A DNA stretch of 64,000 nucleotides from an uncultured Acidimicrobiales bacterium (GTDB lineage: Bacteria; Actinomycetota; Acidimicrobiia; Acidimicrobiales; Aldehydirespiratoraceae). Below, in pieces: positions 9,474 through 59,340 of this stretch (its first letter is position 1; each line of letters starts with the position of its first letter). Under the pieces are notes generated by a model, which was not told the DNA's origin, ran no database searches, and saw only the letters and a program-made list of their open reading frames with translations. The DNA is taken from NCBI GenBank assembly GCA_964533595.1, contig CAZHMP010000004.1, positions 2,723 through 66,722 on the forward strand. The letters run 5' to 3'. A program made the position numbers and the translations under genes.

Positions 9474-13406
<3,933 letters not shown>

Positions 13407-43785: not shown

Positions 43786-44894
43786 GCGCCGCCACTGCCT
43801 CAATTTCAACGTCGGCAATCGCCCACAACGTGGGGGTGTTCCGTGACTTGATCGGCGACTCTCGGCTTTGTGCAGTGGTCAAGGCCGACGGTTACGGCCA
43901 CGGAGCGGTCGCCGTGGCGAACGCTGCGCTGGACGCCGGAGCCGCGTGGTTGGCCGTCGCAACTGCCAATGAGGCCGTCGAGTTGGCAGAAGTCGCGGAG
44001 AGTCGGATGGCGCCGGTGTTGGTGCTGTCGGAACGGCCGAAATCGGAGTTACGGCAATGCTGGGCCGAGCTTCCCTCCACGATTCGCTTTGTCGTGGCGT
44101 CACTCGGTGGGGCACGCACCATTGATTCCTTGGCCGACGCACCTGTGCCTGTCCACATGAAAGTCGATACCGGAATGCATCGCATGGGCATCGATCCGGG
44201 TGGCGTTGTCTCCCTCGCCGAACTGATTGAGAGTCTGCCCAGCCTCGTGTTGGAGGGGGTGTGCACTCATTTGGCCGTGGCCGACGAGCCGGGCAACGAG
44301 TTCACGTCTGAGCAGGCGGCAAGGTTTGACGAGACGCTGGCCGATCTCGATGCTCACGGTCGCGTCGTGCCCATCGTTCATATGGCGAACTCGGCCGCCA
44401 CGATCACACGTCCTGACACTCACCGCGACATGGTTCGGCTCGGCATTGCCATGTATGGAACGCCTCCATCCCCGGCACTGAATGGCGTTGTGGATCTGCA
44501 TCCGGCCCTGCGACTGAGCGCGGAGGTCACAGCGGTTCGCATGGTCGGTGGCTCGGAAAGTGTCTCCTACGGCCGACATTGGTTCGCTGAAGACGAAACA
44601 AGAGTGGCAACTTTGCCCATCGGTTACGCCGATGGCATCAGGCGCAATAGTGCCGACGCCAGAGTTGAGGTTCTCATCCGTGGTTGCCGATTCCCGATCG
44701 TCGGTGCCGTCACAATGGATCAGACGATGGTGGCGGTGGACGATTCCGTCGAAGTTGGCGATGAGGTCGTGTTGATCGGCACTCAGGGCTCGTCGAGCAT
44801 CAGTGCCGAGGAGATCGCGGAACGCCTTGGCACGATCTCCTACGAGGTCCTCGTGTCGTTGGGCAATCGAATCGCCCGCCGGGTTGTGGAGTGA
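43782..44894 (+). CDS. alr: Alanine racemase
   Basis: PLP-lysine motif AVVKADGYGHGAV and PIGYADG. ATGA overlap with nnr. Confidence 0.92.
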   Translation: MSAATASISTSAIAHNVGVFRDLIGDSRLCAVVKADGYGHGAVAVANAALDAGAAWLAVATANEAVELAEVAESRMAPVLVLSERPKSELRQCWAELPSTIRFVVASLGGARTIDSLADAPVPVHMKVDTGMHRMGIDPGGVVSLAELIESLPSLVLEGVCTHLAVADEPGNEFTSEQAARFDETLADLDAHGRVVPIVHMANSAATITRPDTHRDMVRLGIAMYGTPPSPALNGVVDLHPALRLSAEVTAVRMVGGSESVSYGRHWFAEDETRVATLPIGYADGIRRNSADARVEVLIRGCRFPIVGAVTMDQTMVAVDDSVEVGDEVVLIGTQGSSSISAEEIAERLGTISYEVLVSLGNRIARRVVE

Positions 44895-46039
44895 CATCGA
44901 CTCTCGATGTGCTGGTGGTGAATTCGTGGGCGAGCGGGTCACATCTGGCCTGGGCGAGCGGATGGCAGGCATCGAGTGCTCACCGAATCGGCTTTGTCAC
45001 CCACGAGGGTCGGGCGTGGCGATGGAGAATGCGGGGAGGCGCGATCACGCTGGCCGAAGACACCCTTCTCCGTATCAGCGAGCACGGCGCGCCGGATTTG
45101 ATCGTTGTCACCGACATGATCGACTTGGCCGCGTATCTGGCGATGATTCGGCGAACAGCTCCCGATATCGCCGTGGCCATGTACATGCACGAGAACCAAC
45201 TCGGATATCCCCGTCAACCTGGTGAATCGCTGGACCAGGGGCTGGCCTGGACGACCTGGCGCAATCTCGTTCTGGCCGACACCATCTGGTTCAATTCCGA
45301 GTTTCATCGTCGCCAGTTGTTCGAAGCTCTCCCAGTCTTTCTCGGTGGAGTGGCCGACCATTCCCATCTGCATCTCATCGAGTCGGTGAAGGCCAAGAGT
45401 GAGGTGATCCCCGTTGGTGTTGATCTCAGCCATTTCGCAGCGCGCCCGGATTCGGCTTCGTTGGATTCGTCGGCCCCTTTGATCTTGTCGAATCATCGTT
45501 GGCACCACGACAAGAACGTCGGTGCGATTCTCCGAGCGCTGCTTCGGCTGGCAGATCGCGACGTCGCATTTCGTGTTGCCGTGGTCGGAGACGATCAAGG
45601 CGGCGAGCGCGACGCACTTATGCCGCTCATCGAAAGGCTCGGCAACCGGGTGGAAAGGACTGGATATCAGTCGCGGGGCGACTACCTCGAGCTGTTGTCG
45701 CGCTCGGACTTGGTGGTATCGGCCGCGCGCAACGAATACTTCGGGATCGCGGTTGTGGAAGCCATCGCGGCCGGTGCGGTACCGGTGCTTCCGGATGCAT
45801 TGGCCTACCCGGAGGTGATACCTCCGAAGTTTCATTCCGCAGCCCTGTTCCAACCCGGGGATCTCACAAATGCGCTGGAGTTTGCCGTCAATTCGCTCCC
45901 GGCCCTCCGAATCGAGATGACCGGGCTGACGGAGAGCATGTCTCGATTCAGCTGGGATCGAGTGGCGCCCATGCTCGACGCCGCTGCCGTTCGGCTGGTG
46001 ACATCGATCGCCCGATCACACCCCATTCCCGGAGACTGA
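44891..46039 (+). CDS. DUF3524/GTDC1-like GT-B (GT4-type) glycosyltransferase
   Basis: N-terminal SWASGSH, WRWRMRGG, YMHENQLGYP and FNSEFH resemble the GTDC1 N-domain as I remember it. C-terminal GT1 fold with NEYFGIAVVEAIAAG. GTGA overlap with the alr stop. Confidence 0.65.
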   Translation: MTSTLDVLVVNSWASGSHLAWASGWQASSAHRIGFVTHEGRAWRWRMRGGAITLAEDTLLRISEHGAPDLIVVTDMIDLAAYLAMIRRTAPDIAVAMYMHENQLGYPRQPGESLDQGLAWTTWRNLVLADTIWFNSEFHRRQLFEALPVFLGGVADHSHLHLIESVKAKSEVIPVGVDLSHFAARPDSASLDSSAPLILSNHRWHHDKNVGAILRALLRLADRDVAFRVAVVGDDQGGERDALMPLIERLGNRVERTGYQSRGDYLELLSRSDLVVSAARNEYFGIAVVEAIAAGAVPVLPDALAYPEVIPPKFHSAALFQPGDLTNALEFAVNSLPALRIEMTGLTESMSRFSWDRVAPMLDAAAVRLVTSIARSHPIPGD

Positions 46040-46066: not shown

Positions 46067-46942
46067 GTGCACACAGAAATTCCCGGTCTCACTGTTGGGC
46101 ACTGGACCGACGCCGAGGCTCGAACGGGCGCCACAGTGATTCTGTTCCCGGAAGGCACGGTCGCTTCCGGCGAGGTGCGCGGCGGCGCGCCGGCCACTCG
46201 AGAGTTTGCATTGCTTGACCCGCAGTGCATCGTGGACAGAGTTGACGCAGTCGTCTTGAGCGGCGGATCGGCGTTCGGGCTGAGCGCAGCCGACGGCGTG
46301 GTTGCCGGCCTCGAAGCTGCCGGACGGGGATTTCCAACCGCCGCTGGTGTGGTGCCGATCGTGGTGGGCATGTCTCTCTACGATCTCAATGTTGGTTCGG
46401 CGTCGGTGCGGCCCGGGCCAGAAGCGGGTCGGTTGGCACTGACCGCGGCGACGGCAGATCCGGAAACAGGGCCAGTCGGTGCGGGCTCCGGAGCAACGGT
46501 TGGCAAATGGCGTGGCCCCGATGGGGTGCGTCCGGGCGGTTTCTCCCTGGCCACGATGCGGCATGGCGAACTCATTGTCACGGCGCTGGTCGCTGTCAAC
46601 GCCGCCGGTGATGTGGGGGCCCGAGGGCAGGAGGTCGCCGATGGAGTGGCCGACGGGAGCTTTGGCGACTGGCCCGACCGTGGTGAGGTTTTCGGAAACA
46701 CGACGATCGGGGTGGTGGTCACCAACGGGGCCATCGACAAGTCGGGATGTCTGGTCGTTGCCCAGGGTGCCCATGACGGCTTGGCGAGGGCCGTCACGCC
46801 ACCGCATTTACGCACGGACGGTGATGCTTTTGTTGCCGCGGCCACCGGAGCAGTGGAAGGCCACGTCGACGACATTCGGTTCTTGGCGGTGGTGGCGATG
46901 GAGCAGGCCGTGAGGTCGGCTGTCGATACGCTCGACACGTGA
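46067..46942 (+). CDS. Peptidase family S58 (DmpA/P1-type aminopeptidase-like)
   Basis: IPGLTVGHWTDAEARTGATVILFPEG, GGAPATRE, self-processing-like FGNTTIGVVVTN, DGDAFVAAATG. Confidence 0.75.
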   Translation: MHTEIPGLTVGHWTDAEARTGATVILFPEGTVASGEVRGGAPATREFALLDPQCIVDRVDAVVLSGGSAFGLSAADGVVAGLEAAGRGFPTAAGVVPIVVGMSLYDLNVGSASVRPGPEAGRLALTAATADPETGPVGAGSGATVGKWRGPDGVRPGGFSLATMRHGELIVTALVAVNAAGDVGARGQEVADGVADGSFGDWPDRGEVFGNTTIGVVVTNGAIDKSGCLVVAQGAHDGLARAVTPPHLRTDGDAFVAAATGAVEGHVDDIRFLAVVAMEQAVRSAVDTLDT

Positions 46943-47462: not shown

Positions 47463-48160
47463 TCCTGGGCATCGAATCCGCAACAGCTCAGGTCGGATGC
47501 GCAATCGGCGGGCCTGAGGGGTTGCTGGCATCGGCTCACACCGTCAGGCCACGCAGACACGCGGAATCGCTCGCTCCCCAGATCCAATTCGTTGTCGACC
47601 AGGCCGGCGTGGCCATGACCGATCTCGCAGCGGTGGCCGTGGATGTCGGGCCGGGACTTTTCACCGGGCTTCGAGTCGGAATCACCACGGCGATGTCGCT
47701 GGCCCATGCCCTCAACATTGGTGTGGTCACCCGCACGTCGCTGCGTCTGCTGGCGCACCCGGTTGCCGGCGACGACAGGGATGTTGTTGCGGTGGTGGAC
47801 GCGCGTCGGGGCGAGGTATTTCATGCCAGATACAAGCCTGGCCCCGCCGGGCTCACTGAGGTGACACCGCCGGCCGTGTCGACTCCGTCGGATCTGGCAG
47901 CGGAACTCGCCGCCGATGGTGGCCGGATGCTGTTGGTGGGCGACGGTGCTCGAGCCAACCGCGATCAATTTGCAGAGATCGCCGGACTTGAGCTTGCCTC
48001 GCCGGCATACGACAGACCGTCAGCATCTGTGCTGACCGAACTGGCCCGACCGATCGTGCAGCGTGGAGAACTCATCGATCCGCGTCAGATGAGGCCGCTG
48101 TATCTGCGCGAACCTGACGCCAAAGCCAATTGGGAACCGGCCGCGAGTGACACGCCATGA
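47456..48160 (+). CDS. tsaB: tRNA t6A37 biosynthesis protein TsaB
   Basis: LILGIESATAQVGCAI...VAVDVGPGLFTGLRVGITTA. TTG start overlapping the tsaE stop. Confidence 0.88.
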   Translation: MLILGIESATAQVGCAIGGPEGLLASAHTVRPRRHAESLAPQIQFVVDQAGVAMTDLAAVAVDVGPGLFTGLRVGITTAMSLAHALNIGVVTRTSLRLLAHPVAGDDRDVVAVVDARRGEVFHARYKPGPAGLTEVTPPAVSTPSDLAAELAADGGRMLLVGDGARANRDQFAEIAGLELASPAYDRPSASVLTELARPIVQRGELIDPRQMRPLYLREPDAKANWEPAASDTP

Positions 48161-49692
48161 CATCCAAGGTTCACCACGGCCCCAACATCAAGTTGGTACC
48201 TCTCGCGATGGTCCACATCGACGACGTCATGCGTCTCGATGCCACGGTTTTCTCGAAGCCTTGGTCACGTGATTTGTGGGACAACGAGCTCGGTGATTCC
48301 TCAAGAGTTCACATCGTGGCGATGGATGGCAGTTCCGTGGTGGGTCACGCGGGCATCATGACCGTGGTCGACGATGTCCACGTCACGACAATCGCCGTCG
48401 AACCGGCTTCGCAAGGCAATGGAATCGCGTCGATGCTGCTCGCCGAACTGCTCGAGTCGGCGGTCGCGGCCGGATCGAGAGCCGCCACGCTCGAGGTTCG
48501 AGCCGGCGATCGGCGGGCCCAGCGGCTCTACTCCCGCTTCGGATTTGTCCCGGCCGGGGTGCGCCGCGGCTACTACTCCAACCCGACCGACGACGCCATC
48601 ATCATGTGGGTCTCGGATTTCGATGATCCCGATTGGCGACAACGAATGGAACAGCTGCGCAGCCCGGCTGCAGCCGACCACACCGCGGGACGGCGCGAAA
48701 CCATTCTCGGGATCGAAACATCCTGTGATGAGACGGCGGCTGCTGTCGTACGAGGAGGCTCCACCGTGTTGTCGTCGGTGGTATCGAGCCAGATCGACAT
48801 TCATGCGAGGTTCGGCGGCGTGGTCCCCGAAGTCGCCAGTCGGGCCCACGTCGAGGCGATTCTTCCCGTGGTGGATTCGGCGCTTTCCGAGGCGGGAATC
48901 GCCGGAACCGAACTCGATGCGGTGGCTGTCACCCACGGGCCGGGTCTGGTTGGTGCCTTACTGGTCGGCGTGTCGGCGGCCAAGGCGATGTCGCTGGCGT
49001 GGAATGTTCCCCTCATCGGGGTCAACCATCTCGAGGCCCACCTCTACGCAGCCTTCCTCGACGAACCCGATCTCGAAATGCCTCTGGTGGTGCTGCTCGT
49101 GTCCGGTGGTCACACGATGCTTGTGGTGATGGAGGATCATCTCCACTACCGCGTGCTCGGATCGACTCTCGACGATGCGGCCGGCGAGGCGTTCGACAAG
49201 GTGGCCCGTCACGTCGGGCTCGGATATCCCGGCGGGCCGATAATCGACAGAATCAGCTTGGACGGAGACGCTTCTGCGATCCGATTCCCGAGAGCGATGC
49301 AGTCGAAGGGATGGGACTTCTCGTTCAGTGGACTGAAGACATCCGTGGTCAACCATTTGAGAAAGCATCCCGATACCCGGATAGAGGATCTGGCGGCGTC
49401 GTTCCAAGAGGCGGTCGTCGACGTGCTCGTCACCAAGGCACGTCGTGCTGCTCAAGACGTGGGGGCGAAGGGGATCTGCCTGGCCGGAGGGGTCGCGGCC
49501 AACTCGAGGCTGAGGCAGCGAGTTCGGGAGGTCTGCGAGTCCGACGGCCTGACGGCAAACCTGCCGAGCCGTGAAATGTGCACTGACAACGCCGCGATGG
49601 TCGGCGCGGTTGCGTGGCATCGTCTCAATGTCGACGGCCCATCTCCGCTCGGCATCGGAGCCGACCCATCGCTACGACTTCCGTCGGTCTGA
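48157..49692 (+). CDS. tsaD: Fusion protein: RimI-type GNAT acetyltransferase (aa ~1-165) + TsaD/Kae1 (aa ~180-511)
   Basis: GNAT part: IAVEPASQGNGIASMLL...RAQRLYSRFGF. TsaD part: ILGIETSCDETAAAVV, GVNHLEAHL, LLVSGGHT, GYPGGP, LAGGVAANSRLR. One uninterrupted 511-codon ORF. Confidence 0.88.
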   Translation: MTSKVHHGPNIKLVPLAMVHIDDVMRLDATVFSKPWSRDLWDNELGDSSRVHIVAMDGSSVVGHAGIMTVVDDVHVTTIAVEPASQGNGIASMLLAELLESAVAAGSRAATLEVRAGDRRAQRLYSRFGFVPAGVRRGYYSNPTDDAIIMWVSDFDDPDWRQRMEQLRSPAAADHTAGRRETILGIETSCDETAAAVVRGGSTVLSSVVSSQIDIHARFGGVVPEVASRAHVEAILPVVDSALSEAGIAGTELDAVAVTHGPGLVGALLVGVSAAKAMSLAWNVPLIGVNHLEAHLYAAFLDEPDLEMPLVVLLVSGGHTMLVVMEDHLHYRVLGSTLDDAAGEAFDKVARHVGLGYPGGPIIDRISLDGDASAIRFPRAMQSKGWDFSFSGLKTSVVNHLRKHPDTRIEDLAASFQEAVVDVLVTKARRAAQDVGAKGICLAGGVAANSRLRQRVREVCESDGLTANLPSREMCTDNAAMVGAVAWHRLNVDGPSPLGIGADPSLRLPSV

Positions 49693-49772
49693 CTGATCCG
49701 CTGATTACAGCCAATCGGGCCGGATTTCCTGAGTCGTTTGGCCCATTTCAATAGGGCAGAAGTCCCGGCTGA

Positions 49773-51539
49773 ATGAACTGGCGGCGATCTCGGCCGACGA
49801 AGATTCGGATGGCACGTATAGGGACTCACTTTGCGCACAGTGACGCGTCGACCGTGACCCGGCTTCGTCGCGCCGGTCGGCTCGGATTCGTCGCTGTGGT
49901 GTTGAGCGTCATGGTGGCGCTCGTCTTCATCGAGTCGAGAAGCGGGTCGATGGATTCGTCGCATCGCGAGTTCGAACTCGCCTCCATGCAGCGACTCGAG
50001 TTGAGTCAGCTGTCAAACAATGTCCAGCGTCTCGCGGCAACCGAGAACCCGATTCTCGAATCGAACTACCGGACATTGGTGGCCGACGGCATCGACATGA
50101 TCCGCAATATCCAAGTGGATCTGGAGATCAACGATCCGGCGATATCTCTCCTGGTCGTCGATCTCGGCAATGGTGCCACGCTGCACAATGCCGTCGATTT
50201 GATGTTCGAGTCGGTCGAATCGACGGTCGAGCGACTCGAGATCGGCGACGGCGAGCTACCGGGCACTCCGCCGGAAGTAGCGGTGACTCTGGATCGAATC
50301 ATTCAACTGGGTGGCTCTTACGAGATGTTGGCCACGGCGGCCGGTCAACGCACTGTCGACTCGATTCATCTGATCCGATCTGGCGGCCGCTGGCTGGCGG
50401 TGCTCGTTCTGTTTTCGGCGTTCGTCAGAGTGTCCGTCGTTGGTGGTCCACTAATGAAGCGACTTGATGAAGACCGGATGAAGTTCGATTCGGAACAGCT
50501 CAGAAGTGCAGCCGAAGCTGATCTCCAGGAGCTGTCCGCGCTGATGGGCGATGGCATGGAGACATCGTCCGACGAGCCGTCGGCTCTGAGAGTGGTCGAA
50601 CGAGCCCTTCAGCACGTCATCCCCGGGGTCTCTGCGGAGTTGCTCTTGGCCGATTCGTCGATGGCACATCTGAAACTCGCGGCGGCCAATCCCGGTGTCG
50701 TCAATCCTGGTTGCGGCGTGGGATCTCCGTGGTCCTGCCCGGCGGTTCGACGCGCGGAAACAAGCGTCTTTCCGAATTCGGAATCTGTGCGGTCCTGCAG
50801 CTACCTCAGCGGACGCGCCGCCGGTGCGTGCTCAGCCGTATGCGTCCCGGTCTCTTTCATGGGTGGTGCAATGGGAGTTCTCCATGTCACCGGTGAGGTG
50901 GGCTGGAACCCGGGACCCGAGGTGGTTGAGCCGCTTCAGATCATTACCCACCAGACCGCAATGAGGATCGGGACGTTGCGTTCGTTCGCCAAAGCCGAAG
51001 TGCAGGCTTCAACCGATGTGCTGACTGGCCTACCCAACCGTCGCTCCACGGAAAGCCACCTGCGATCGTTCCTTTCCGAGCAGTCACCCGGGTCGGTTGC
51101 ACTCGCCGACCTCGATCACTTCAAGGTGCTGAACGACACATTTGGCCATGAGATGGGTGACCGGGCCCTGCGGGTCTTCGCCGGAGCACTTCGATCGACA
51201 TTGCGAGAAAACGATTGGGCTGGTCGCTGGGGCGGCGAAGAATTTGTGATGGTTCTTCCCGGCCTCAACTCCACTGAGGCAGGTCGCATTCTCGACAGGC
51301 TGCGTGGGCGGCTTCTGGAAACGTGCAGCGAGTCGGAAATCCCGGAGTTCACGGTGTCGGTGGGAATTGTCGACACCACATCCGGCTCGACTGTCGATGA
51401 GCTATTGAGGCTGGCGGACGGTGCCCTCTATTCGGCCAAGGCCGAGGGGCGCAACCGAATCGTGGCTGGCCCGACGCCCGCCGTCTCCGACGATCAAGGA
51501 CCTGCAATGAAGAGCCTGCCCAGAGAGGTGCGATCATGA
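49773..51539 (+). CDS. Membrane sensor diguanylate cyclase, paralogue 1 (2 TM, extracytoplasmic helical domain, Cys-rich GAF-like module, GGDEF)
   Basis: TM helices near aa 37-53 and 207-225. Cys module GCGVGSPWSCPA...SC...CSAVC. GGDEF domain: GLPNRR, DLDHFKVLND, I-site REND, GGEEF. Confidence 0.85.
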   Translation: MNWRRSRPTKIRMARIGTHFAHSDASTVTRLRRAGRLGFVAVVLSVMVALVFIESRSGSMDSSHREFELASMQRLELSQLSNNVQRLAATENPILESNYRTLVADGIDMIRNIQVDLEINDPAISLLVVDLGNGATLHNAVDLMFESVESTVERLEIGDGELPGTPPEVAVTLDRIIQLGGSYEMLATAAGQRTVDSIHLIRSGGRWLAVLVLFSAFVRVSVVGGPLMKRLDEDRMKFDSEQLRSAAEADLQELSALMGDGMETSSDEPSALRVVERALQHVIPGVSAELLLADSSMAHLKLAAANPGVVNPGCGVGSPWSCPAVRRAETSVFPNSESVRSCSYLSGRAAGACSAVCVPVSFMGGAMGVLHVTGEVGWNPGPEVVEPLQIITHQTAMRIGTLRSFAKAEVQASTDVLTGLPNRRSTESHLRSFLSEQSPGSVALADLDHFKVLNDTFGHEMGDRALRVFAGALRSTLRENDWAGRWGGEEFVMVLPGLNSTEAGRILDRLRGRLLETCSESEIPEFTVSVGIVDTTSGSTVDELLRLADGALYSAKAEGRNRIVAGPTPAVSDDQGPAMKSLPREVRS

Positions 51540-53233
51540 GGGTCAACGGTCGATCTGGGCAAGGGCAGCCATTGCACGTCCGATTCCGGCGCATCTACCA
51601 GTTGGGAATGGTGTTGGCAGTGGTGGCCTGGGGACTCGTCTGGTTCGCCAACCAACGAGGGCTCGACGGCTCTCTGGCAGCCAGTGCCAGGGCGCGAGTT
51701 GCAACGAGCATCAGGCAGGATGTCGCCGAGGTGGGAGACGCGCTCGACGGGGTGGAGGAGTCTCCGGAATCGCCCGTGGCCAAGTCCGATCTGAGCCGGG
51801 TGGCGGCGCGACTGGATCGAAGTTGGGCCGGCCTCGTGTCCGACCCGACGAGCATGCCGGCGGATGTCGAGTTGTTGATCAACGGCCCGAACGGCCTCGC
51901 GGAACAGATGACATTGTTGCTGAGCGGTGCAGAGTCCGTGGCCGATGTTTCGGCGACCCGTGCCCTGAGGATGGTCGCCTCCGAGGCTGGGAGATTCGAG
52001 AAGCTGTCGGCGGAAATTTCGAGTCGCCTCGGACAGGTGGTTGCATCGTATGAGGCACAGGAGGAGGCGTCGGTTGGTGATGCTCGCCGTGCGAGCAATG
52101 TTGCATACGCCTCCGCGATAGCCATCTCGATCGTTGTGGCGGTCGCCTTCCTTCGACCGATGGAACGTCGACTTCGCGACGAGCACTATGAGCTCGTCGA
52201 TGCCGGCACCTCCCAGGATGCCGAGAGGTTGAGACAGGAACTCTCCGCTCATCTCGCCGAGGGGCTCGACGCGGTGGAGAGCGAGTCGGAGACCATGACG
52301 CTTGTGTCACGCGCTCTGGCCCAAGTCGTCGACGTGCCCGCCGAGGTGCTGATGTCCGACACTTCGAGAACCAATCTCACCGTTGCCGCTGCCCATCCCG
52401 TGTTCGGTGGCCCGGGGTGCGGTGTCTCGTCTCCAGCTGATTGTCCAGCCATCTCTCGTGGCCGAACCCTCTACTACGAGAACTCTGGCGCAATCAATGC
52501 CTGCCCCCAACTTCAGCAACACTGTGATGGGCCGACGTCGGCAACCTGCATTCCACTTTCATTCATGGGCAAGTCGATGGGGGTCGTCCATTCGACCGGA
52601 CCAATCGACGATGAGGCGGCAGAATCAAACCGGGACTTCCTGTCGATGATCGCCTCACAGTCTGCGGTTCGGATCGGAACCCTGCGGTCGTTTGCTCAGG
52701 TCGAGCTGCAAACATCCACCGACATCCTGACCGGATTGCCAAACAGACGAGCCACCGAAGACCGGGTCATGCGTCTGAATTCTGCGGAGAAAGTCGGATC
52801 AGTTGCAATGGCGGACCTCGACTATTTCAAATCGCTCAACGACACATACGGTCACGAGGCCGGCGATCGGGCTTTGCGATTGTTTGCAGACGTCGCGAGA
52901 GACGCCATGCGCGACGATGACTGGTTGGGACGTTGGGGCGGCGAAGAGTTTGTGTTCGTCATGCCCGGGATGGTCGCGTCGCAAGCCAAGGCCGCGCTCG
53001 ATCGGATGCGAGCCCGACTGGCCGAGGAATGCGCAAAGGCGGAGGTCCCAACCGTGAGAGTTTCGATTGGGGTCGTCGATACCGAGTCAGCGGAGACCAC
53101 GAACAACCTGATGCGGCTCGCAGATGAGGCGTTGCTCGCCGCCAAGGCACAGGGGCGCGATCGTGTTCTCGTCGGTCCGGTGATGGCCGTGGTCGGATCC
53201 GGCGCGTCGGATGATGCTGAGCCGACGACATGA
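51536..53233 (+). CDS. Membrane sensor diguanylate cyclase, paralogue 2
   Basis: Same architecture: GCGVSSPADCPA...AC...C...TC, GLPNRR, DLDYFKSLND, RDDD-x5-GGEEF. ATGA overlap with paralogue 1. Confidence 0.85.
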   Translation: MRVNGRSGQGQPLHVRFRRIYQLGMVLAVVAWGLVWFANQRGLDGSLAASARARVATSIRQDVAEVGDALDGVEESPESPVAKSDLSRVAARLDRSWAGLVSDPTSMPADVELLINGPNGLAEQMTLLLSGAESVADVSATRALRMVASEAGRFEKLSAEISSRLGQVVASYEAQEEASVGDARRASNVAYASAIAISIVVAVAFLRPMERRLRDEHYELVDAGTSQDAERLRQELSAHLAEGLDAVESESETMTLVSRALAQVVDVPAEVLMSDTSRTNLTVAAAHPVFGGPGCGVSSPADCPAISRGRTLYYENSGAINACPQLQQHCDGPTSATCIPLSFMGKSMGVVHSTGPIDDEAAESNRDFLSMIASQSAVRIGTLRSFAQVELQTSTDILTGLPNRRATEDRVMRLNSAEKVGSVAMADLDYFKSLNDTYGHEAGDRALRLFADVARDAMRDDDWLGRWGGEEFVFVMPGMVASQAKAALDRMRARLAEECAKAEVPTVRVSIGVVDTESAETTNNLMRLADEALLAAKAQGRDRVLVGPVMAVVGSGASDDAEPTT

Positions 53234-54858
53234 CGGTTGTGCCCAGCAGGGCCAGAGAATGGTGGGCCGGCGTCGGCCGCCACCAACGATTGCAAGGATC
53301 GGTGCTCGGCGCGTTCGCCGTCGCAGTAATCCTTACAAGCGCCCTGCTGTTAAGCGCCGGTCAACTCGGTCAACGACTCGATTCGAGAGCGTCACAATCC
53401 CATGGCGGGCTGGTTCTTGCTCAATCGATGACCCGAGCCAATCTTGTGCTCGAGGCTTACGACGGATCGGTTCAGAGCCGGACAGATCTGGCCGATGCTG
53501 CGGCTGATCTTTCCGCTGCCATCGATGGTGGCAACGAATCCGAAGGCGCGGTTTGGCTTCCTGAGCTGAGACACCTTGCTCGGTCGATCAGCGGCATGGC
53601 GGAATCTTCCATGGCCGGTGAGACCGCACGCACATACGCAGAGAGTTTGGCTCAGCAACAGGAGGTTCTTCTCGGCGAATTGGTGGCCGACACTCAACAC
53701 TTGGTGGCCGACTCCTCTTCGGACTACAGCGCTTGGTATCGGTGGGTCGTCGTCGTGGCGGTAATCGGCATGCTCGTATTGGCACTCACCGTGGTCCACG
53801 TGATCTTGCCTCTCAACCGGTCGATTCGACGGTCGCTGGTGAAGCTCGAGGCCTGGACCGCCACGGCCAGGCAAAAAGCCATTCAGCGCAAGCTGTTTTC
53901 TGAGGTGACCGACGGGCTTGAATCGGCTACTTCTGAGCGGCAAGCGTTCGCCGTGATCGAACGAACACTGCGCGAAATCACCACAGATTTCGAAGTGGAG
54001 GTGCTGCTTGCCGAGTCGGCCAAGGGACATCTCCACCCGGAAGTCGTACACCCTGTCAACGGTGGCCCTGGCTGTGGGGTGACATCTCCGTGGTCCTGCC
54101 CGGCCGTGCGAGCCGCGACGAGTGTCGTATTCGATGACTCGCGCGAAATCAGGGCTTGCCCGCATTTGGCTCGGCACGTTGATCCTTGCTCGGCGGCGTG
54201 CGCTCCGCTCATGTTCATGGGCGAACCGATGGGAGTGGTCCATGCGACCGGACCGGTGGGGGTTCAACCGCCAGAGAACATGGTGGAGGCGCTGTCGGTG
54301 CTGGCGACGGAGGCTTCCACGCGCTTGGGCACGCTGCGGGCATTCGCTCATGCAGAGATGAAGGCGGCTACCGATGCGTTGACCGGTAGCTACAGTCGCC
54401 GCGCCTCAGAGGAGAAGATCGGCCAGCTGGTAAGGCGTCCCGGTTCCGCCGCGATTGCACTGTTCGAAGTCGGAGGACTCATCGATCTCAATTCGCATCG
54501 GGGGAGTCAGGCCGGGGATCATGCGCTGCGCTTGTTCGTGGAGACGGTGAGAGAAAATGTGCGGGCAACCGATTGGTGCGGGCGCTGGCACGGTGCGCAG
54601 TTCCTGGTGGTGATGGAAGCGACGACATCGGCTGATGCGCGTCGACGCCTCGAGGCGACCCGCATTGCAGTCCTGAATGCGTTCTCGTCGGCGGATCTGG
54701 ATGGACTCACGATTCGTTTCGGCGTGACCGATTCGGCTGGAGTCACCAATGTGGCGCTCCTGATGGAGGCCGCAGATGCCGCGCTCGTCGGGTCGGGCGA
54801 TGACAACGCATCGACCTTGGAGGAACTGGCTGCCATCGTGGAACAAATCGAGGTCTGA
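53230..54858 (+). CDS. Membrane sensor protein with degenerate GGDEF domain, paralogue 3
   Basis: Same TM and Cys module (GCGVTSPWSCPA...AC...CSAAC). GGDEF is replaced by HGAQF and GLPNRR by GSYSRR, and the metal-binding DxD context is lost. The RxxD (RATD) I-site is retained. ATGA overlap with paralogue 2. Confidence 0.8.
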   Translation: MTVVPSRAREWWAGVGRHQRLQGSVLGAFAVAVILTSALLLSAGQLGQRLDSRASQSHGGLVLAQSMTRANLVLEAYDGSVQSRTDLADAAADLSAAIDGGNESEGAVWLPELRHLARSISGMAESSMAGETARTYAESLAQQQEVLLGELVADTQHLVADSSSDYSAWYRWVVVVAVIGMLVLALTVVHVILPLNRSIRRSLVKLEAWTATARQKAIQRKLFSEVTDGLESATSERQAFAVIERTLREITTDFEVEVLLAESAKGHLHPEVVHPVNGGPGCGVTSPWSCPAVRAATSVVFDDSREIRACPHLARHVDPCSAACAPLMFMGEPMGVVHATGPVGVQPPENMVEALSVLATEASTRLGTLRAFAHAEMKAATDALTGSYSRRASEEKIGQLVRRPGSAAIALFEVGGLIDLNSHRGSQAGDHALRLFVETVRENVRATDWCGRWHGAQFLVVMEATTSADARRRLEATRIAVLNAFSSADLDGLTIRFGVTDSAGVTNVALLMEAADAALVGSGDDNASTLEELAAIVEQIEV

Positions 54859-54902
54859 GTCCCTCGATTTGTGGTTGTCGGAGGCGTTCCTTCGTCCTAT
54901 CG

Positions 54903-54929
54903 TTGGCACTCGGCATTAGAGAGTGCTAA
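54903..54929 (+). promoter_or_regulatory. CIRCE (HrcA operator) inverted repeat upstream of groES
   Basis: TTGGCACTC-N9-GAGTGCTAA against consensus TTAGCACTC-N9-GAGTGCTAA (1 mismatch), 22 nt upstream of the groES ATG. Confidence 0.88.
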
Positions 54930-54950: not shown

Positions 54951-55241
54951 ATGAACCTTCAGCCACTCGAGGACCGGATTGTAGTCCGGGCAAACGAAGC
55001 TGAATCCACCACAGCCAGCGGCTTGGTGATTCCTGATACCGCCAAGGAAAAGCCCCAGCAGGGTGAAGTCCTGGCCGTTGGCCCAGGCCGACGCTCGGAC
55101 CAGACCGGCGAGATCATTCCCGTCGATGTGGCCGTGGGTGACACCGTCGTCTACTCCAAGTACGGCGGCACGGAAATCACCGTCGAGGGTGAAGACCTGC
55201 TGATCCTCAACGCCCGCGACGTGCTCGCCAAGATCGGCTGA
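54951..55241 (+). CDS. groES: Co-chaperonin GroES
   Basis: [44 protein letters not shown]. Confidence 0.97.
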
Positions 55242-55246
55242 GGTAG

Positions 55247-56905
<1,659 letters not shown>

Positions 56906-56959: not shown

Positions 56960-56992
56960 TTGTTCGTTTTGTCCGCCGTTAGCGTCAGTGAG

Positions 56993-57424
56993 ATGCCCGT
57001 ATTCTCCAACGCAGTGCTGGTGCGCGTGTCCCTCGGGATGTCGACGTTGTCTGGCATGTTGCTTTTGGCCCCTTGGGCTCGCAGCGGGCGCACCGGCAGG
57101 TCGATGTTTGCTCTGATTTCCTCGGCGAGTGCCCTTGATCTGATTTCGGGCGTCGAAAAGGCGATCGTGGTGATGGCGGTCGTTGCCGTCCTCGTAGCGG
57201 TTGGGACTGCTCTTGTGGCCGCGGCATGGTCTCGGCCCAGGCTGGCTGCCGTTGCTTTGGTCGCGCCCGGACCCATCTTGGTTGTTGCTGCCATGATCAT
57301 CTCGAAAGCCTCTCTGTCGCTCGACTGGGGAGCATTTGCCGGCTCAACCGCGGGGGTAATTGGGTCGATATGTGCAACCATGAGCCTGCTGATCGATTCG
57401 CGACAACGAGATCTCCGGAAATGA
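56993..57424 (+). CDS. Hypothetical small polytopic membrane protein (~4 TM)
   Basis: Hydrophobic segments LLLAPWA, IVVMAVVAVLVAVGTALVAAAW, LAAVALVAPGPILVVAAMII, GVIGSICATMSLL. The start is uncertain (ATG 56993; the ORF is open from 56960, inside the terminator U-tract). ATGA overlap with the next gene. Confidence 0.45.
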   Translation: MPVFSNAVLVRVSLGMSTLSGMLLLAPWARSGRTGRSMFALISSASALDLISGVEKAIVVMAVVAVLVAVGTALVAAAWSRPRLAAVALVAPGPILVVAAMIISKASLSLDWGAFAGSTAGVIGSICATMSLLIDSRQRDLRK

Positions 57425-59340
57425 CCGAATTCGAACAACCGCTGGGTTCTCCCAAAGCTGCCGGCTCGCCATTGACCCCGGACGGCGGGGCGGTGGTCGT
57501 CGAGGCGGTCCAAGCATCGGGGCGGCGCCAACCGTCGAGGTTGGTTGTGAGAGCGGCGGCAGTGGCCGCGGCTCTTGTGTTGGTCGGCGGGGGAGCTGTG
57601 TTGGCCATCAGCGCGGGCAGCGCTACGGGTGGATCGGATAGCCCTGAGGCAGCGGTCACTCAGCTTCTTGAGTCGCTCTCGAACGAGGACCTGCTGGGCG
57701 CGGCCGAAGTGATGGTCCCGAGCGAGCGTCACACGCTGGTCGAATCAGGCGTAGCCATTACAGAGGAACTTGTTCGTCTCGGAGTTCTGTCTGACGACGT
57801 TGATCTGACGGCGCTGACCGGTATCGATTTGAGGTTCGACAATCTCAGCCTTCGGGAGGTCCCGGTACGATCCGACATCAGCCAAATCTTCATCGATCGG
57901 GGCAGCTCCCGAGCCACGGTGGATGTGTCCCAGCTGCCATTGGGAAGTCTGATCACCGAGCGAATCCCCGAGGATTTCCTCGCGTTCACGGATTCGGTTG
58001 CTTCGCCGATCGATTCCCGCACTCCGATTGCGGTGGTGGAGCGCGACGGACGTTGGTATGTCAGCCTCTGGTATTCAGTTGCCGAGAACGCTCGTGTGGC
58101 GGCCGGCCGGGCCGTGCCGGCGGCATCGGAAGCTCTCGTCCCGATAGGAGCCGAATCCCCTGAGGCCGCAGTTGAACGACTGATTCGCGAGGCGTCGCGC
58201 CTCGATCCTCGCACGGTGATCGGGATGCTTGATCCCGAGGAGATGTCTGCCCTCTACGACTACGCACCATTGTTCATCGCCGACGCAGAAGCAGCGGCAA
58301 ATGATGCGTTGCAGTCCGCCATCGACTCGGGCACCAACTGGACGATCGACTCAATCGATTTGTCGGCTACGGGTGATGACCTGCTGGCGGTCGTTGCCGT
58401 TGAGGGTTTCGAGGGTTCGCTCACCACCCATGACGGCGACGTTCGCGTGTCGTACCGGAATGGAGATATCGACGTCGTGTGGACCAGCACCGATTTCATG
58501 GGCGGCTCACACGACACCACCTACTCGTTCCACGACGGCTGTCTCAAGGTCACCTCGGCCGTCACGTCCCAGGAATTCTCGTTCGACTCCTGCGACACGT
58601 CCGGTGATTCCCTCGGTGTGCCGGGCCCATTCGGACCAGTCGAGATTTTCGGGCTCGGAGGAGCCGGGATTCTGCCGTCCCTGCCGTTCGTCGGTTCCGA
58701 CTTCGAAGTGGTCACTCACAACGTTGATGGCAAGTGGTTCGTCTCCCCGACCCGAACCATCACCGCTGCGGTGGTCGCGGCATTGAAGTCGATCGACCCC
58801 GACGATCTCGCCGCATCCGCAGACAACTTCGGCGATTTGTTCAGCGGGTCGATACTCGGCAGTGATGGCTTCGGATACAGCAGCGGCACCGATCTGGCAT
58901 TTCCATTTCCGGAGCAACCGCCGCCGTTCCAGCGCGACATGCCCACGCTCACGGCTGAAGATTTCGGTGCCACGAACACCGACCTCGTCCGCGGCAATCC
59001 GAAGGTCAGCTGGGCGCTCGACCTGTCGCCCGAAGACGTGAGCGCATCGTTGGATTTTTGGGTGCCCGACCTCGAACCCATCGAGGCGACTCGTGGCATC
59101 GAGATCAACATCCCCACGGAGGCCGGCGAAATGCAGCTCACCGTGGCCGAGTTGGCGACGCTGCCTGAGACGATCCTTGGCGACCTGATGATCGAAGACG
59201 GAGCGGTGCTGCAGCTGTTCGACAGCGTTGGTGACACGGTTTTGGTGGCTCTGGACGGTAATCGGCTTTTGATATTGGGCTCTTTCGGCGATGTGTCGAT
59301 CGACGAGCTGACCGCACTGTTGGACGGCCAAACGAGCTGA
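57421..59340 (+). CDS. Hypothetical membrane-anchored extracytoplasmic protein with duplicated module
   Basis: Single N-terminal TM (VVRAAAVAAALVLVGGGAVLAI). SPEAAV...DG(R/K)W(Y/F)VS occurs twice. No recognisable catalytic motif. ATG 57421 lies within ORF 57226..59340. Confidence 0.55.
   Translation: MTEFEQPLGSPKAAGSPLTPDGGAVVVEAVQASGRRQPSRLVVRAAAVAAALVLVGGGAVLAISAGSATGGSDSPEAAVTQLLESLSNEDLLGAAEVMVPSERHTLVESGVAITEELVRLGVLSDDVDLTALTGIDLRFDNLSLREVPVRSDISQIFIDRGSSRATVDVSQLPLGSLITERIPEDFLAFTDSVASPIDSRTPIAVVERDGRWYVSLWYSVAENARVAAGRAVPAASEALVPIGAESPEAAVERLIREASRLDPRTVIGMLDPEEMSALYDYAPLFIADAEAAANDALQSAIDSGTNWTIDSIDLSATGDDLLAVVAVEGFEGSLTTHDGDVRVSYRNGDIDVVWTSTDFMGGSHDTTYSFHDGCLKVTSAVTSQEFSFDSCDTSGDSLGVPGPFGPVEIFGLGGAGILPSLPFVGSDFEVVTHNVDGKWFVSPTRTITAAVVAALKSIDPDDLAASADNFGDLFSGSILGSDGFGYSSGTDLAFPFPEQPPPFQRDMPTLTAEDFGATNTDLVRGNPKVSWALDLSPEDVSASLDFWVPDLEPIEATRGIEINIPTEAGEMQLTVAELATLPETILGDLMIEDGAVLQLFDSVGDTVLVALDGNRLLILGSFGDVSIDELTALLDGQTS

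Follow-up and report, generated by a model that had tools for sequence, protein, structure and literature searches.

A tandem trio of membrane GGDEF paralogues between tsaD and groES in Acidimicrobiales, with two predicted diguanylate cyclases and a degenerate third member: probably an old and repeatedly lost operon

We analysed a 64,000-nucleotide stretch of DNA from an uncultured Acidimicrobiales bacterium (assembly GCA_964533595.1, contig CAZHMP010000004.1, positions 2,723 to 66,722; hereafter the window), in which three paralogous genes for membrane-bound GGDEF proteins stand in a row between tsaD and groES. The entire window is a + strand housekeeping region, and all features given here are on that strand, in window positions. 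The genes, called A (49773-51539, 588 aa), B (51536-53233, 565 aa) and C (53230-54858, 542 aa), share ATGA start/stop overlaps at 51536-51539 and 53230-53233 when the open reading frames (ORFs) are read off, and the CIRCE operator (controlling inverted repeat of chaperone expression) of groES begins 45 nt past the stop codon of C, just as an earlier reading of the letters (the original prediction) had described. A and B, which have the same architecture, are predicted active sensor diguanylate cyclases; C joins the same kind of sensor half to a degenerate GGDEF domain and is a predicted non-catalytic sensor that binds cyclic di-GMP (c-di-GMP). A Shine-Dalgarno-like GAGAGG lies 8 nt upstream of the start of B. 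Gene A carries a 12-residue N-terminal extension relative to all of its orthologues, and because these begin where Met13 (ATG at 49809) aligns, that codon may be its true start; neither candidate (49773 or 49809) has a clear Shine-Dalgarno sequence.

The domain order in all three proteins is a first transmembrane segment (TM1), a periplasmic four-helix bundle, a second transmembrane segment (TM2), a signalling helix, a GAF domain and the GGDEF domain, with two hydrophobic segments in each protein. In A, these are TM1 (49881-49937), the bundle (49938-50390), TM2 (50391-50447), the signalling helix (50448-50564), a GAF domain with a Cys4-His motif (50565-50972, the motif from C314 to H371 at 50712-50885) and the GGDEF domain (51006-51458, with RENDWAGRWGGEEF at 51204-51245). 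B has TM1 at 51593-51649, TM2 at 52097-52153, the Cys4-His motif at 52418-52591 and GGDEF at 52715-53164 (RDDDWLGRWGGEEF at 52910-52951), and in C the corresponding features are TM1 at 53302-53358, TM2 at 53749-53805, the Cys4-His motif at 54073-54243 and a GGDEF-like domain at 54364-54789. An AlphaFold2 model of A built on 40 homologues (mean predicted local distance difference test score, pLDDT, 88.7) has helices at residues 27-89, 93-120, 137-157 and 167-264, corresponding to TM1, the four-helix bundle, TM2 and an unbroken signalling helix. A short beta-hairpin is inserted between bundle helices 2 and 3 of the model, and residues 268-413 form an alpha/beta GAF, its elements above pLDDT 90, whose last helix continues into the GGDEF domain. 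The hydrophobic segments, this model and the GGDEF matches agree on the common architecture that had been proposed for the three paralogues. We also observed a basic cytoplasmic motif, PLxxRFxRGxxxGF, just before TM1 (A residues 28-39, about 49854-49889), with equivalents in B and C; its residues R30, R33, G38 and F39 are invariant or nearly so across all three paralogue groups.

The GGDEF domains set C apart from its two neighbours. Pfam GGDEF (PF00990) matches A at an E value of 1e-39 (136 bits), B at 7e-36 (124 bits) and C at 1e-15 (58 bits), the cut-off being 23.8 bits, and TIGR00254 yields 135.5, 128.2 and 46.9 bits, respectively (cut-off 37.4). A contains GGEEF and LADLDHFK, B contains GGEEF and MADLDYFK, and the Mg/GTP residues are kept in both. 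Also present are the N of xLND and the D of GHxxGD (A VLNDTFGHEMGD, B SLNDTYGHEAGD), the guanine-specific residues that, with roles as in PleD and GacA, mark the c-di-GMP type and not the Hypr/cGAMP (cyclic GMP-AMP) type. An RxxD inhibitory site (I-site) stands five residues before GGEEF in A and B, and all of these motifs (GGEEF, ADLDxFKxLND, GHxxGD and RxxD) recur in A and B of every genome compared. We infer that both are product-inhibitable diguanylate cyclases. In C, by contrast, HGAQF replaces GGEEF and FEVGGLI (within LFEVGGLI) replaces ADLDxFK, and RxxD is kept five residues ahead of the former motif (RATD-WCGRW-HGAQF; RxxD region RATDWCGRWHGAQF at 54562-54603). The third gene is always degenerate, following [AHSTG]G[AGS][EQ]F as AGAEF, AGGEF, SGAEF, TGSEF, GGAQF or HGAQF, and RxxD accompanies the degenerate motif in all eight C orthologues. 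The split into two apparently active members and one degenerate member, as first suggested for the window, is thus constant among orthologues, and by its motifs C is most likely a c-di-GMP-binding, non-catalytic sensor (a receptor or a brake) and not a cyclase.

The GAF domain had been described as a Cys-rich, GAF-like module. Cys-rich it is; by its modelled fold it is a true GAF, and it belongs to a large, conserved Cys4-His GAF-GGDEF family. In an alignment of 40 sequences, C314, C322, C342, C357 and H371 (A numbering) never vary, and C-x7-C-x17-21-C-x10-16-C-x-P-x10-14-H occurs in 119 of the 120 best homologues. When 1.84 billion representatives were searched, the GAF profile matched 563 representative clusters at E<=1e-30, a number that rises to 2205 at E<=1e-10; all but two of the 144 top representatives have the Cys4-His motif, and RxxD and GGEEF then follow in 104 of these 142. 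Several family members with the motif (P0243, P0269 and P0246, at 38.1, 35.6 and 32.0 bits) exceed the cut-off of Pfam GAF_2 (PF13185), which is 28.6 bits. The N-termini attached to the module varied in a sample of ten (HAMP, PAS, CHASE4 or PilJ), and its hosts include Solirubrobacteraceae, Ilumatobacteraceae, Steroidobacteraceae and Leptothrix. As judged by such matches, the Cys4-His GAF-GGDEF cassette is common across Actinomycetota and some Proteobacteria. A PDB profile search with the GAF returned weak generic GAF matches, 3oov (4e-5) and, weakly, Nlh1 and DevS, with no structure bearing the Cys4-His motif among them. A literature search found no paper on a Cys or iron-sulfur (Fe-S) GAF-GGDEF protein, an absence that is only weakly established.

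The model places the cysteines in the beta2-alpha2 loop, in the beta3-beta4 loop and on beta4, with the histidine on beta5; in other GAF domains, that region is the ligand pocket. As a GTP-using enzyme follows it, the domain must lie in the cytoplasm, and from its conserved residues we infer a metal, Fe-S or reversible thiol redox sensor. No bilin or cyclic nucleotide signature is present in the GAF domains of the window. Free methionine-R-sulfoxide reductases (fRMsr) are Cys-bearing GAFs too, and this kind of domain was considered and rejected: hhalign against Escherichia coli YebR gave a probability of 0.4%, and no fRMsr chain appeared among the PDB profile matches. The disulfides of mycobacterial Rv1354c were likewise rejected as an equivalent, their motif being a different one; the cysteines of that protein are scattered, with a single one within the GAF (PMC2994820).

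The periplasmic sensors are harder to place. The N-terminal regions of 17 orthologues matched no Pfam family, including PilJ/NarX-type and 4HB_MCP, at E<=10, in keeping with the original prediction, which had recognised no named family in this half. A separate AlphaFold2 model of the sensor (A residues 1-262, pLDDT 85) had as its top Foldseek matches the NarQ sensor with its transmembrane part, QseE, Tar, Tsr and the ligand-binding domain of Vc1313, at E values of 5e-3 to 0.14, and hhalign gave a probability of 91% (90.8%) against P0363, a GAF-GGDEF family member with a Pfam PilJ N-terminus, a signal that comes partly from TM2 and the signalling helix. Because of the NarQ/QseE/Tar/Tsr fold matches and the PilJ alignment, and despite the missing Pfam match, the modelled periplasmic part reads as a divergent NarX/PilJ-like four-helix bundle. 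Like NarQ/NarX, Tar/Tsr, QseE and the Pfam PilJ/4HB_MCP families, the window proteins combine TM1, an antiparallel four-helix bundle and TM2, with the last helix entering the cytoplasm. Unlike the NarQ- and Tar-type sensors, they have a hairpin between helices 2 and 3, a weak Foldseek match (5e-3) and none in Pfam, and their output is GAF-GGDEF where those sensors have a kinase or a methyl-accepting chemotaxis protein. No NarX-type P-box was seen in the periplasmic domains of the window. Between orthologues, the bundle is 23-33% and the GAF domain 60-64% identical; between paralogues, the figures are 12-14% and 47-49%, respectively. Since the bundles are so divergent between paralogues, their sequences point to three distinct periplasmic inputs.

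The trio was originally taken to be an accessory insertion. The relatives do not support one private to this genome: A-B-C at the identical site is common beside groES in related Acidimicrobiales metagenome-assembled genomes (MAGs), a situation that the original prediction had itself named as one that would tell against its reading. Full-length homologues, at 41-59% identity and >90% coverage, are confined to Acidimicrobiales/Actinomycetota MAGs, where the trio proteins are annotated merely as "GGDEF domain-containing protein." Contig look-ups and one genome scan placed the order tsaE-tsaB-rimI-tsaD-A-B-C-groES-groEL in at least six other genomes (loci L002/L014, L005, L007/L011, L009, L012 and L013), and four further genomes have partial contigs consistent with it (L010+L017, L015, L016 and L018). 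The 4-nt overlaps between the trio genes are kept in most orthologous loci. In an identity matrix, orthologues share 40-56% (A with A), 45-61% (B with B) and 37-53% (C with C), and comparisons across paralogues give 26-40%. Orthology thus follows position, so the triplication and the order of the genes must be older than these lineages. Among C orthologues, the GAF domain is 64% identical, versus 45% for the GGDEF domain.

Other relatives have lost the trio in part or altogether. L001 (GCA_054033455.1) has A and B, then a 272-bp spacer (10253-10524) with a relic of the GAF of C, and L049 (GCA_003231645.1, 8154-9337) retains a chimeric remnant in which a deletion fused the N-terminus of A to the C-terminus of C, split by a frameshift. 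In L045, the closest relative of the window (TsaD 89% identical, rimI and tsaD fused likewise), tsaD is directly followed by groES. The same trio-less adjacency is found in L046, L048 and L050, as in Mycobacterium, so that the trio does interrupt a tsaD-groES neighbourhood, as had been proposed; in L047, the trio position is occupied by an unrelated gene of the opposite strand. On a neighbour-joining tree of TsaD, GroEL, TsaB and TsaE, trio-bearing, decayed and trio-less states are interleaved in every major branch, and the divergence of A tracks that of TsaD (85% identity in TsaD and 56% in A for L001, 83% and 50% for L009, 75% and 41% for L002). The most economical reading of these comparisons is a single ancient acquisition, after which the trio was lost independently several times.

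We consider it fairly probable that the trio is an old, lineage-specific operon of three paralogous inner-membrane sensors, with A and B as cyclases and C as a non-catalytic member, acquired once, inherited vertically, repeatedly lost and untied to groESL. In each protein, TM1 would enter the membrane from the cytoplasmic side, and a coiled coil would join the GAF to the GGDEF domain. By analogy with other GAF- and phytochrome-GGDEF enzymes, A and B would be dimers whose geometry is set by the helical linker and controlled by two inputs. The first would be an extracytoplasmic ligand, read by three different four-helix bundles; the second would be cytoplasmic and sensed by the GAF through its Cys4-His pocket, the likeliest candidates being a metal or Fe-S centre bound there or the redox state of the thiols. 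Through their RxxD sites, A and B would be inhibited by the c-di-GMP that they make. In C, where both sensor modules appear to be under strong constraint, the loss of catalytic residues and retention of RxxD would suit a c-di-GMP receptor or brake. The acquisition would have taken place a single time, at the tsaD|groES junction in an ancestor of this Acidimicrobiales clade, with vertical descent and several erosions and deletions thereafter; to judge from the genomes compared, the trio is dispensable.

Several observations weigh against parts of this account. Foldseek matched the periplasmic fold only weakly (E 5e-3, TM score about 0.3-0.5), and the GAF domains of the window all fall below the GAF_2 cut-off (16.9 bits in A, 19.8 in B and 28.4 in C). 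The putative cofactor is deduced from conservation and secondary-structure position, and the neighbour-joining tree carries no support values. The C protein of the window is the most diverged member and C is deleted in the near relative L001, so function is perhaps weak or waning in this sub-clade. Finally, no terminator was found in the interval between C and groES, which would allow read-through into groES.

The closest competitor, which we regard as possible but at odds well short of even, is that A, B and C mix in hetero-oligomers through their transmembrane segments, bundles and signalling helices, with translational coupling setting the stoichiometry. Catalysis requires a competent GGDEF half-site from both partners, so A:C and B:C dimers would then be inactive, and C would titrate activity. 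The start/stop overlaps, the retention of all three genes in constant order over deep divergence and the constraint on the sensor and linker of C (51% over TM2 and the signalling helix, 64% over the GAF) would all suit such mixing, but the paralogues share only 12-27% identity in their periplasmic and membrane-proximal parts, as would be more usual for separate homodimers, and L001 manages with A and B alone. A more specific proposal, rather doubtful in our estimation, would place an Fe-S or redox-metal centre in the C-x7-C-x19-C-x14-C...H pocket and make the dead, I-site-bearing C a c-di-GMP-gated brake on A and B, through heterodimerisation or as a local receptor. If it is true, a large uncharacterised class of GAF-based redox, O2, nitric oxide or metal sensors would be hard-wired to diguanylate cyclases, and a metal or Fe-S centre would constitute a new type of input for the GAF repertoire and for c-di-GMP control.

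It is unlikely that C, or the whole trio within the sub-clade, consists of decaying, redundant paralogues with no specific role. None of the three ORFs in the window is interrupted or truncated, no invariant GAF residue has been lost from C, which also keeps RxxD, and the GAF of C is 64% conserved across the clade; these facts are difficult to square with decay, even though the nearest relatives have lost or eroded the locus (none of it in L045 and L048, C missing from L001, a chimeric remnant in L049) and the window C is the most diverged of its kind (37-46% identity to orthologues, HGAQF at the former active site and TGSYSRR where TGLPNRR is expected).

The original prediction had also raised possible read-through into the chaperonin operon, or insulation from it. 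A functional coupling to that operon, by such read-through or through c-di-GMP acting on proteostasis, would explain the conserved adjacency. We find this improbable, since a conserved promoter and CIRCE precede groES itself, in a spacer matched by that of trio-less L045. The 92-nt spacer between C and groES (54951-55241; groEL at 55253-56905) contains a putative promoter of groES at 54875-54903, which lies outside the trio and marks its downstream limit, with -35 TTGTCG at 54875-54880, a 17-nt spacing and -10 TATCGT at 54898-54903, and, abutting the -10, the CIRCE operator (HrcA site) at 54903-54929, TTGGCACTC-N9-GAGTGCTAA, which has one mismatch to the TTAGCACTC-N9-GAGTGCTAA inverted repeat. 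The -35 and -10 elements, which we predict to function as a promoter, are found in all compared loci (trio-bearing L001, L002 and L007 and trio-less L045), and CIRCE is kept in loci with and without the trio. In L045, a homologous 92-nt spacer follows directly after the stop codon of tsaD, and the DNA homology between it and the window starts at the stop codon of C. Because this promoter and CIRCE spacer is common to trio-bearing and trio-less loci, groESL is predicted to have HrcA-type control of its own in either kind of locus; no CIRCE stands upstream of the trio. What speaks for a connection is that the site directly upstream of groES is constant in all trio-bearing genomes, together with the want of a terminator-like site before groES. 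Yet groESL has stayed unchanged through repeated deletions of the trio, and a single insertion into one intergenic site accounts for the adjacency, which on these comparisons appears to be a historical accident, with no functional link to the chaperonin operon seen. The position beside groESL should therefore not be over-read.

That the trio is a recent, horizontally acquired island is scarcely credible: its presence is patchy among close relatives and the tsaD-groES block is otherwise contiguous, as in Mycobacterium, but its GC content (0.57-0.64) equals that of the flanks, no mobile-element genes or repeats were found at its borders, the divergence of A, B and C tracks that of TsaD, and site and gene order are identical in distant branches. 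Two other candidates were rejected. Anti-phage defence (of a GGDEF/Cas10-palm-like kind) had no PADLOC match, and for a plasmid or mobile origin, tblastn against plasmids gave only generic GGDEF matches of <=30% identity, none covering 80% of A.

A control site of the trio's own may lie upstream of A. The 80-nt spacer between tsaD and A (49693-49772) contains GAGTCGTTTGGCCC at 49731-49744, which recurs as a GGTCGTT..GGCCC-like sequence in orthologous tsaD-A spacers (five loci compared by eye), with versions such as TGGGTCGTTCGGACC, TTGGTCGTTACGGGC and similar ones in L001, L002, L005 and L007; these spacers are otherwise unconserved. The motif may be a promoter of the trio or an operator or other regulator site. 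No sigma-70 promoter-like sites were found around the trio, and terminator-like sites there are no commoner than in shuffled sequence, both scans being uninformative for a high-GC actinobacterium. No riboswitch or other RNA element reached the Rfam gathering level in the trio spacers.

Among known systems, the closest to the cytoplasmic half are the GAF-GGDEF enzyme Dcsbis (PA2771, 4zmu) and the phytochrome-activated cyclase IsPadC (5llw), the best Foldseek matches of the full A model at E values of 1e-13 to 9e-15 (5llw at 9e-15). Like the window proteins, both have a GAF fold, a long helix or coiled coil and a canonical GGDEF domain with GGEEF and RxxD. IsPadC signals through the register of its linker helix, and by analogy the window proteins likely share this mode. 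Unlike these two enzymes, they are anchored in the membrane, with an extra periplasmic sensor and an invariant Cys4-His motif in the GAF. C has its own parallels in PelD, PopA and SgmT, degenerate-GGDEF receptors that bind c-di-GMP through the I-site: its GGDEF domain is likewise predicted to be non-catalytic, and in every orthologue RxxD precedes the former GG[DE]EF by five residues. It differs from them in being a transmembrane sensor with bundle and GAF inputs of its own, in tandem with two apparently active paralogues.

Every domain type in the trio is known and tandem cyclase paralogues are common, so the trio is only moderately unusual. Three aspects of the sequences are distinctive: the constant A-B-C order among deeply divergent genomes, in which the third member is without exception degenerate yet I-site-bearing; the large uncharacterised Cys4-His GAF subfamily coupled to GGDEF; and the clean natural series of losses among relatives. 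The Acidimicrobiia are an abundant, mostly uncultured class of marine and freshwater actinobacteria, in which c-di-GMP signalling is, to our knowledge, essentially unstudied. The locus offers a defined, evolutionarily stable module of three components, two predicted cyclases and a dead paralogue with an intact allosteric site, and the natural knock-outs in close relatives (A and B only, remnants, clean deletion) allow the roles of the three members to be tested comparatively. A lead of wider reach is the Cys4-His GAF-GGDEF cassette, joined as it is to many different N-terminal sensors.

The genes around the trio follow the mycobacterial alr-tsaE-tsaB-rimI-tsaD-groES-groEL1 block, which we take to be Rv3423c-Rv3417c, with groES preceded by CIRCE. 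The housekeeping gene order is the same, as is the CIRCE before groES; unlike the mycobacterial block, the window has the 5.2-kb trio between tsaD and groES, a QTMAN_N-type glycosyltransferase and an S58 peptidase between alr and tsaE, and rimI fused to tsaD. Its upstream order is thus alr, glycosyltransferase, peptidase, tsaE, tsaB and the rimI-tsaD ORF. The conserved tsaE-tsaB-rimI-tsaD block of the original prediction is correct as to order, though rimI and tsaD are not separate genes here: they form a single 511-aa ORF at 48157-49692, the upstream boundary of the trio. In most relatives, rimI (a GNAT gene) and tsaD are separate, usually with a 4-nt overlap. Because the fusion recurs in several related proteins (P0122, which is 89% identical, P0124, P0125, P0127 and P0130), we take it to be a real feature of the lineage and not a sequencing error.

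The glycosyltransferase (44891-46039) matches PF12038, QTMAN_N, the N-terminal domain of tRNA-queuosine alpha-mannosyltransferase, with an E value of 6e-44. It and the S58 peptidase (46067-46942) are kept between alr and tsaE in most related loci, and a queuosine-glycosylating-type enzyme beside genes for t6A (N6-threonylcarbamoyladenosine) in a bacterium may merit a separate look. Directly 3' of groEL are two ORFs without a Pfam or PADLOC match, at 56960-57424 (154 aa) and about 57421-59340 (about 640-704 aa), and counterparts of both are kept after groEL in most related loci, whether the trio is present or absent. The sole Rfam gathering-level match in the whole window is a tRNA gene at 528-600.

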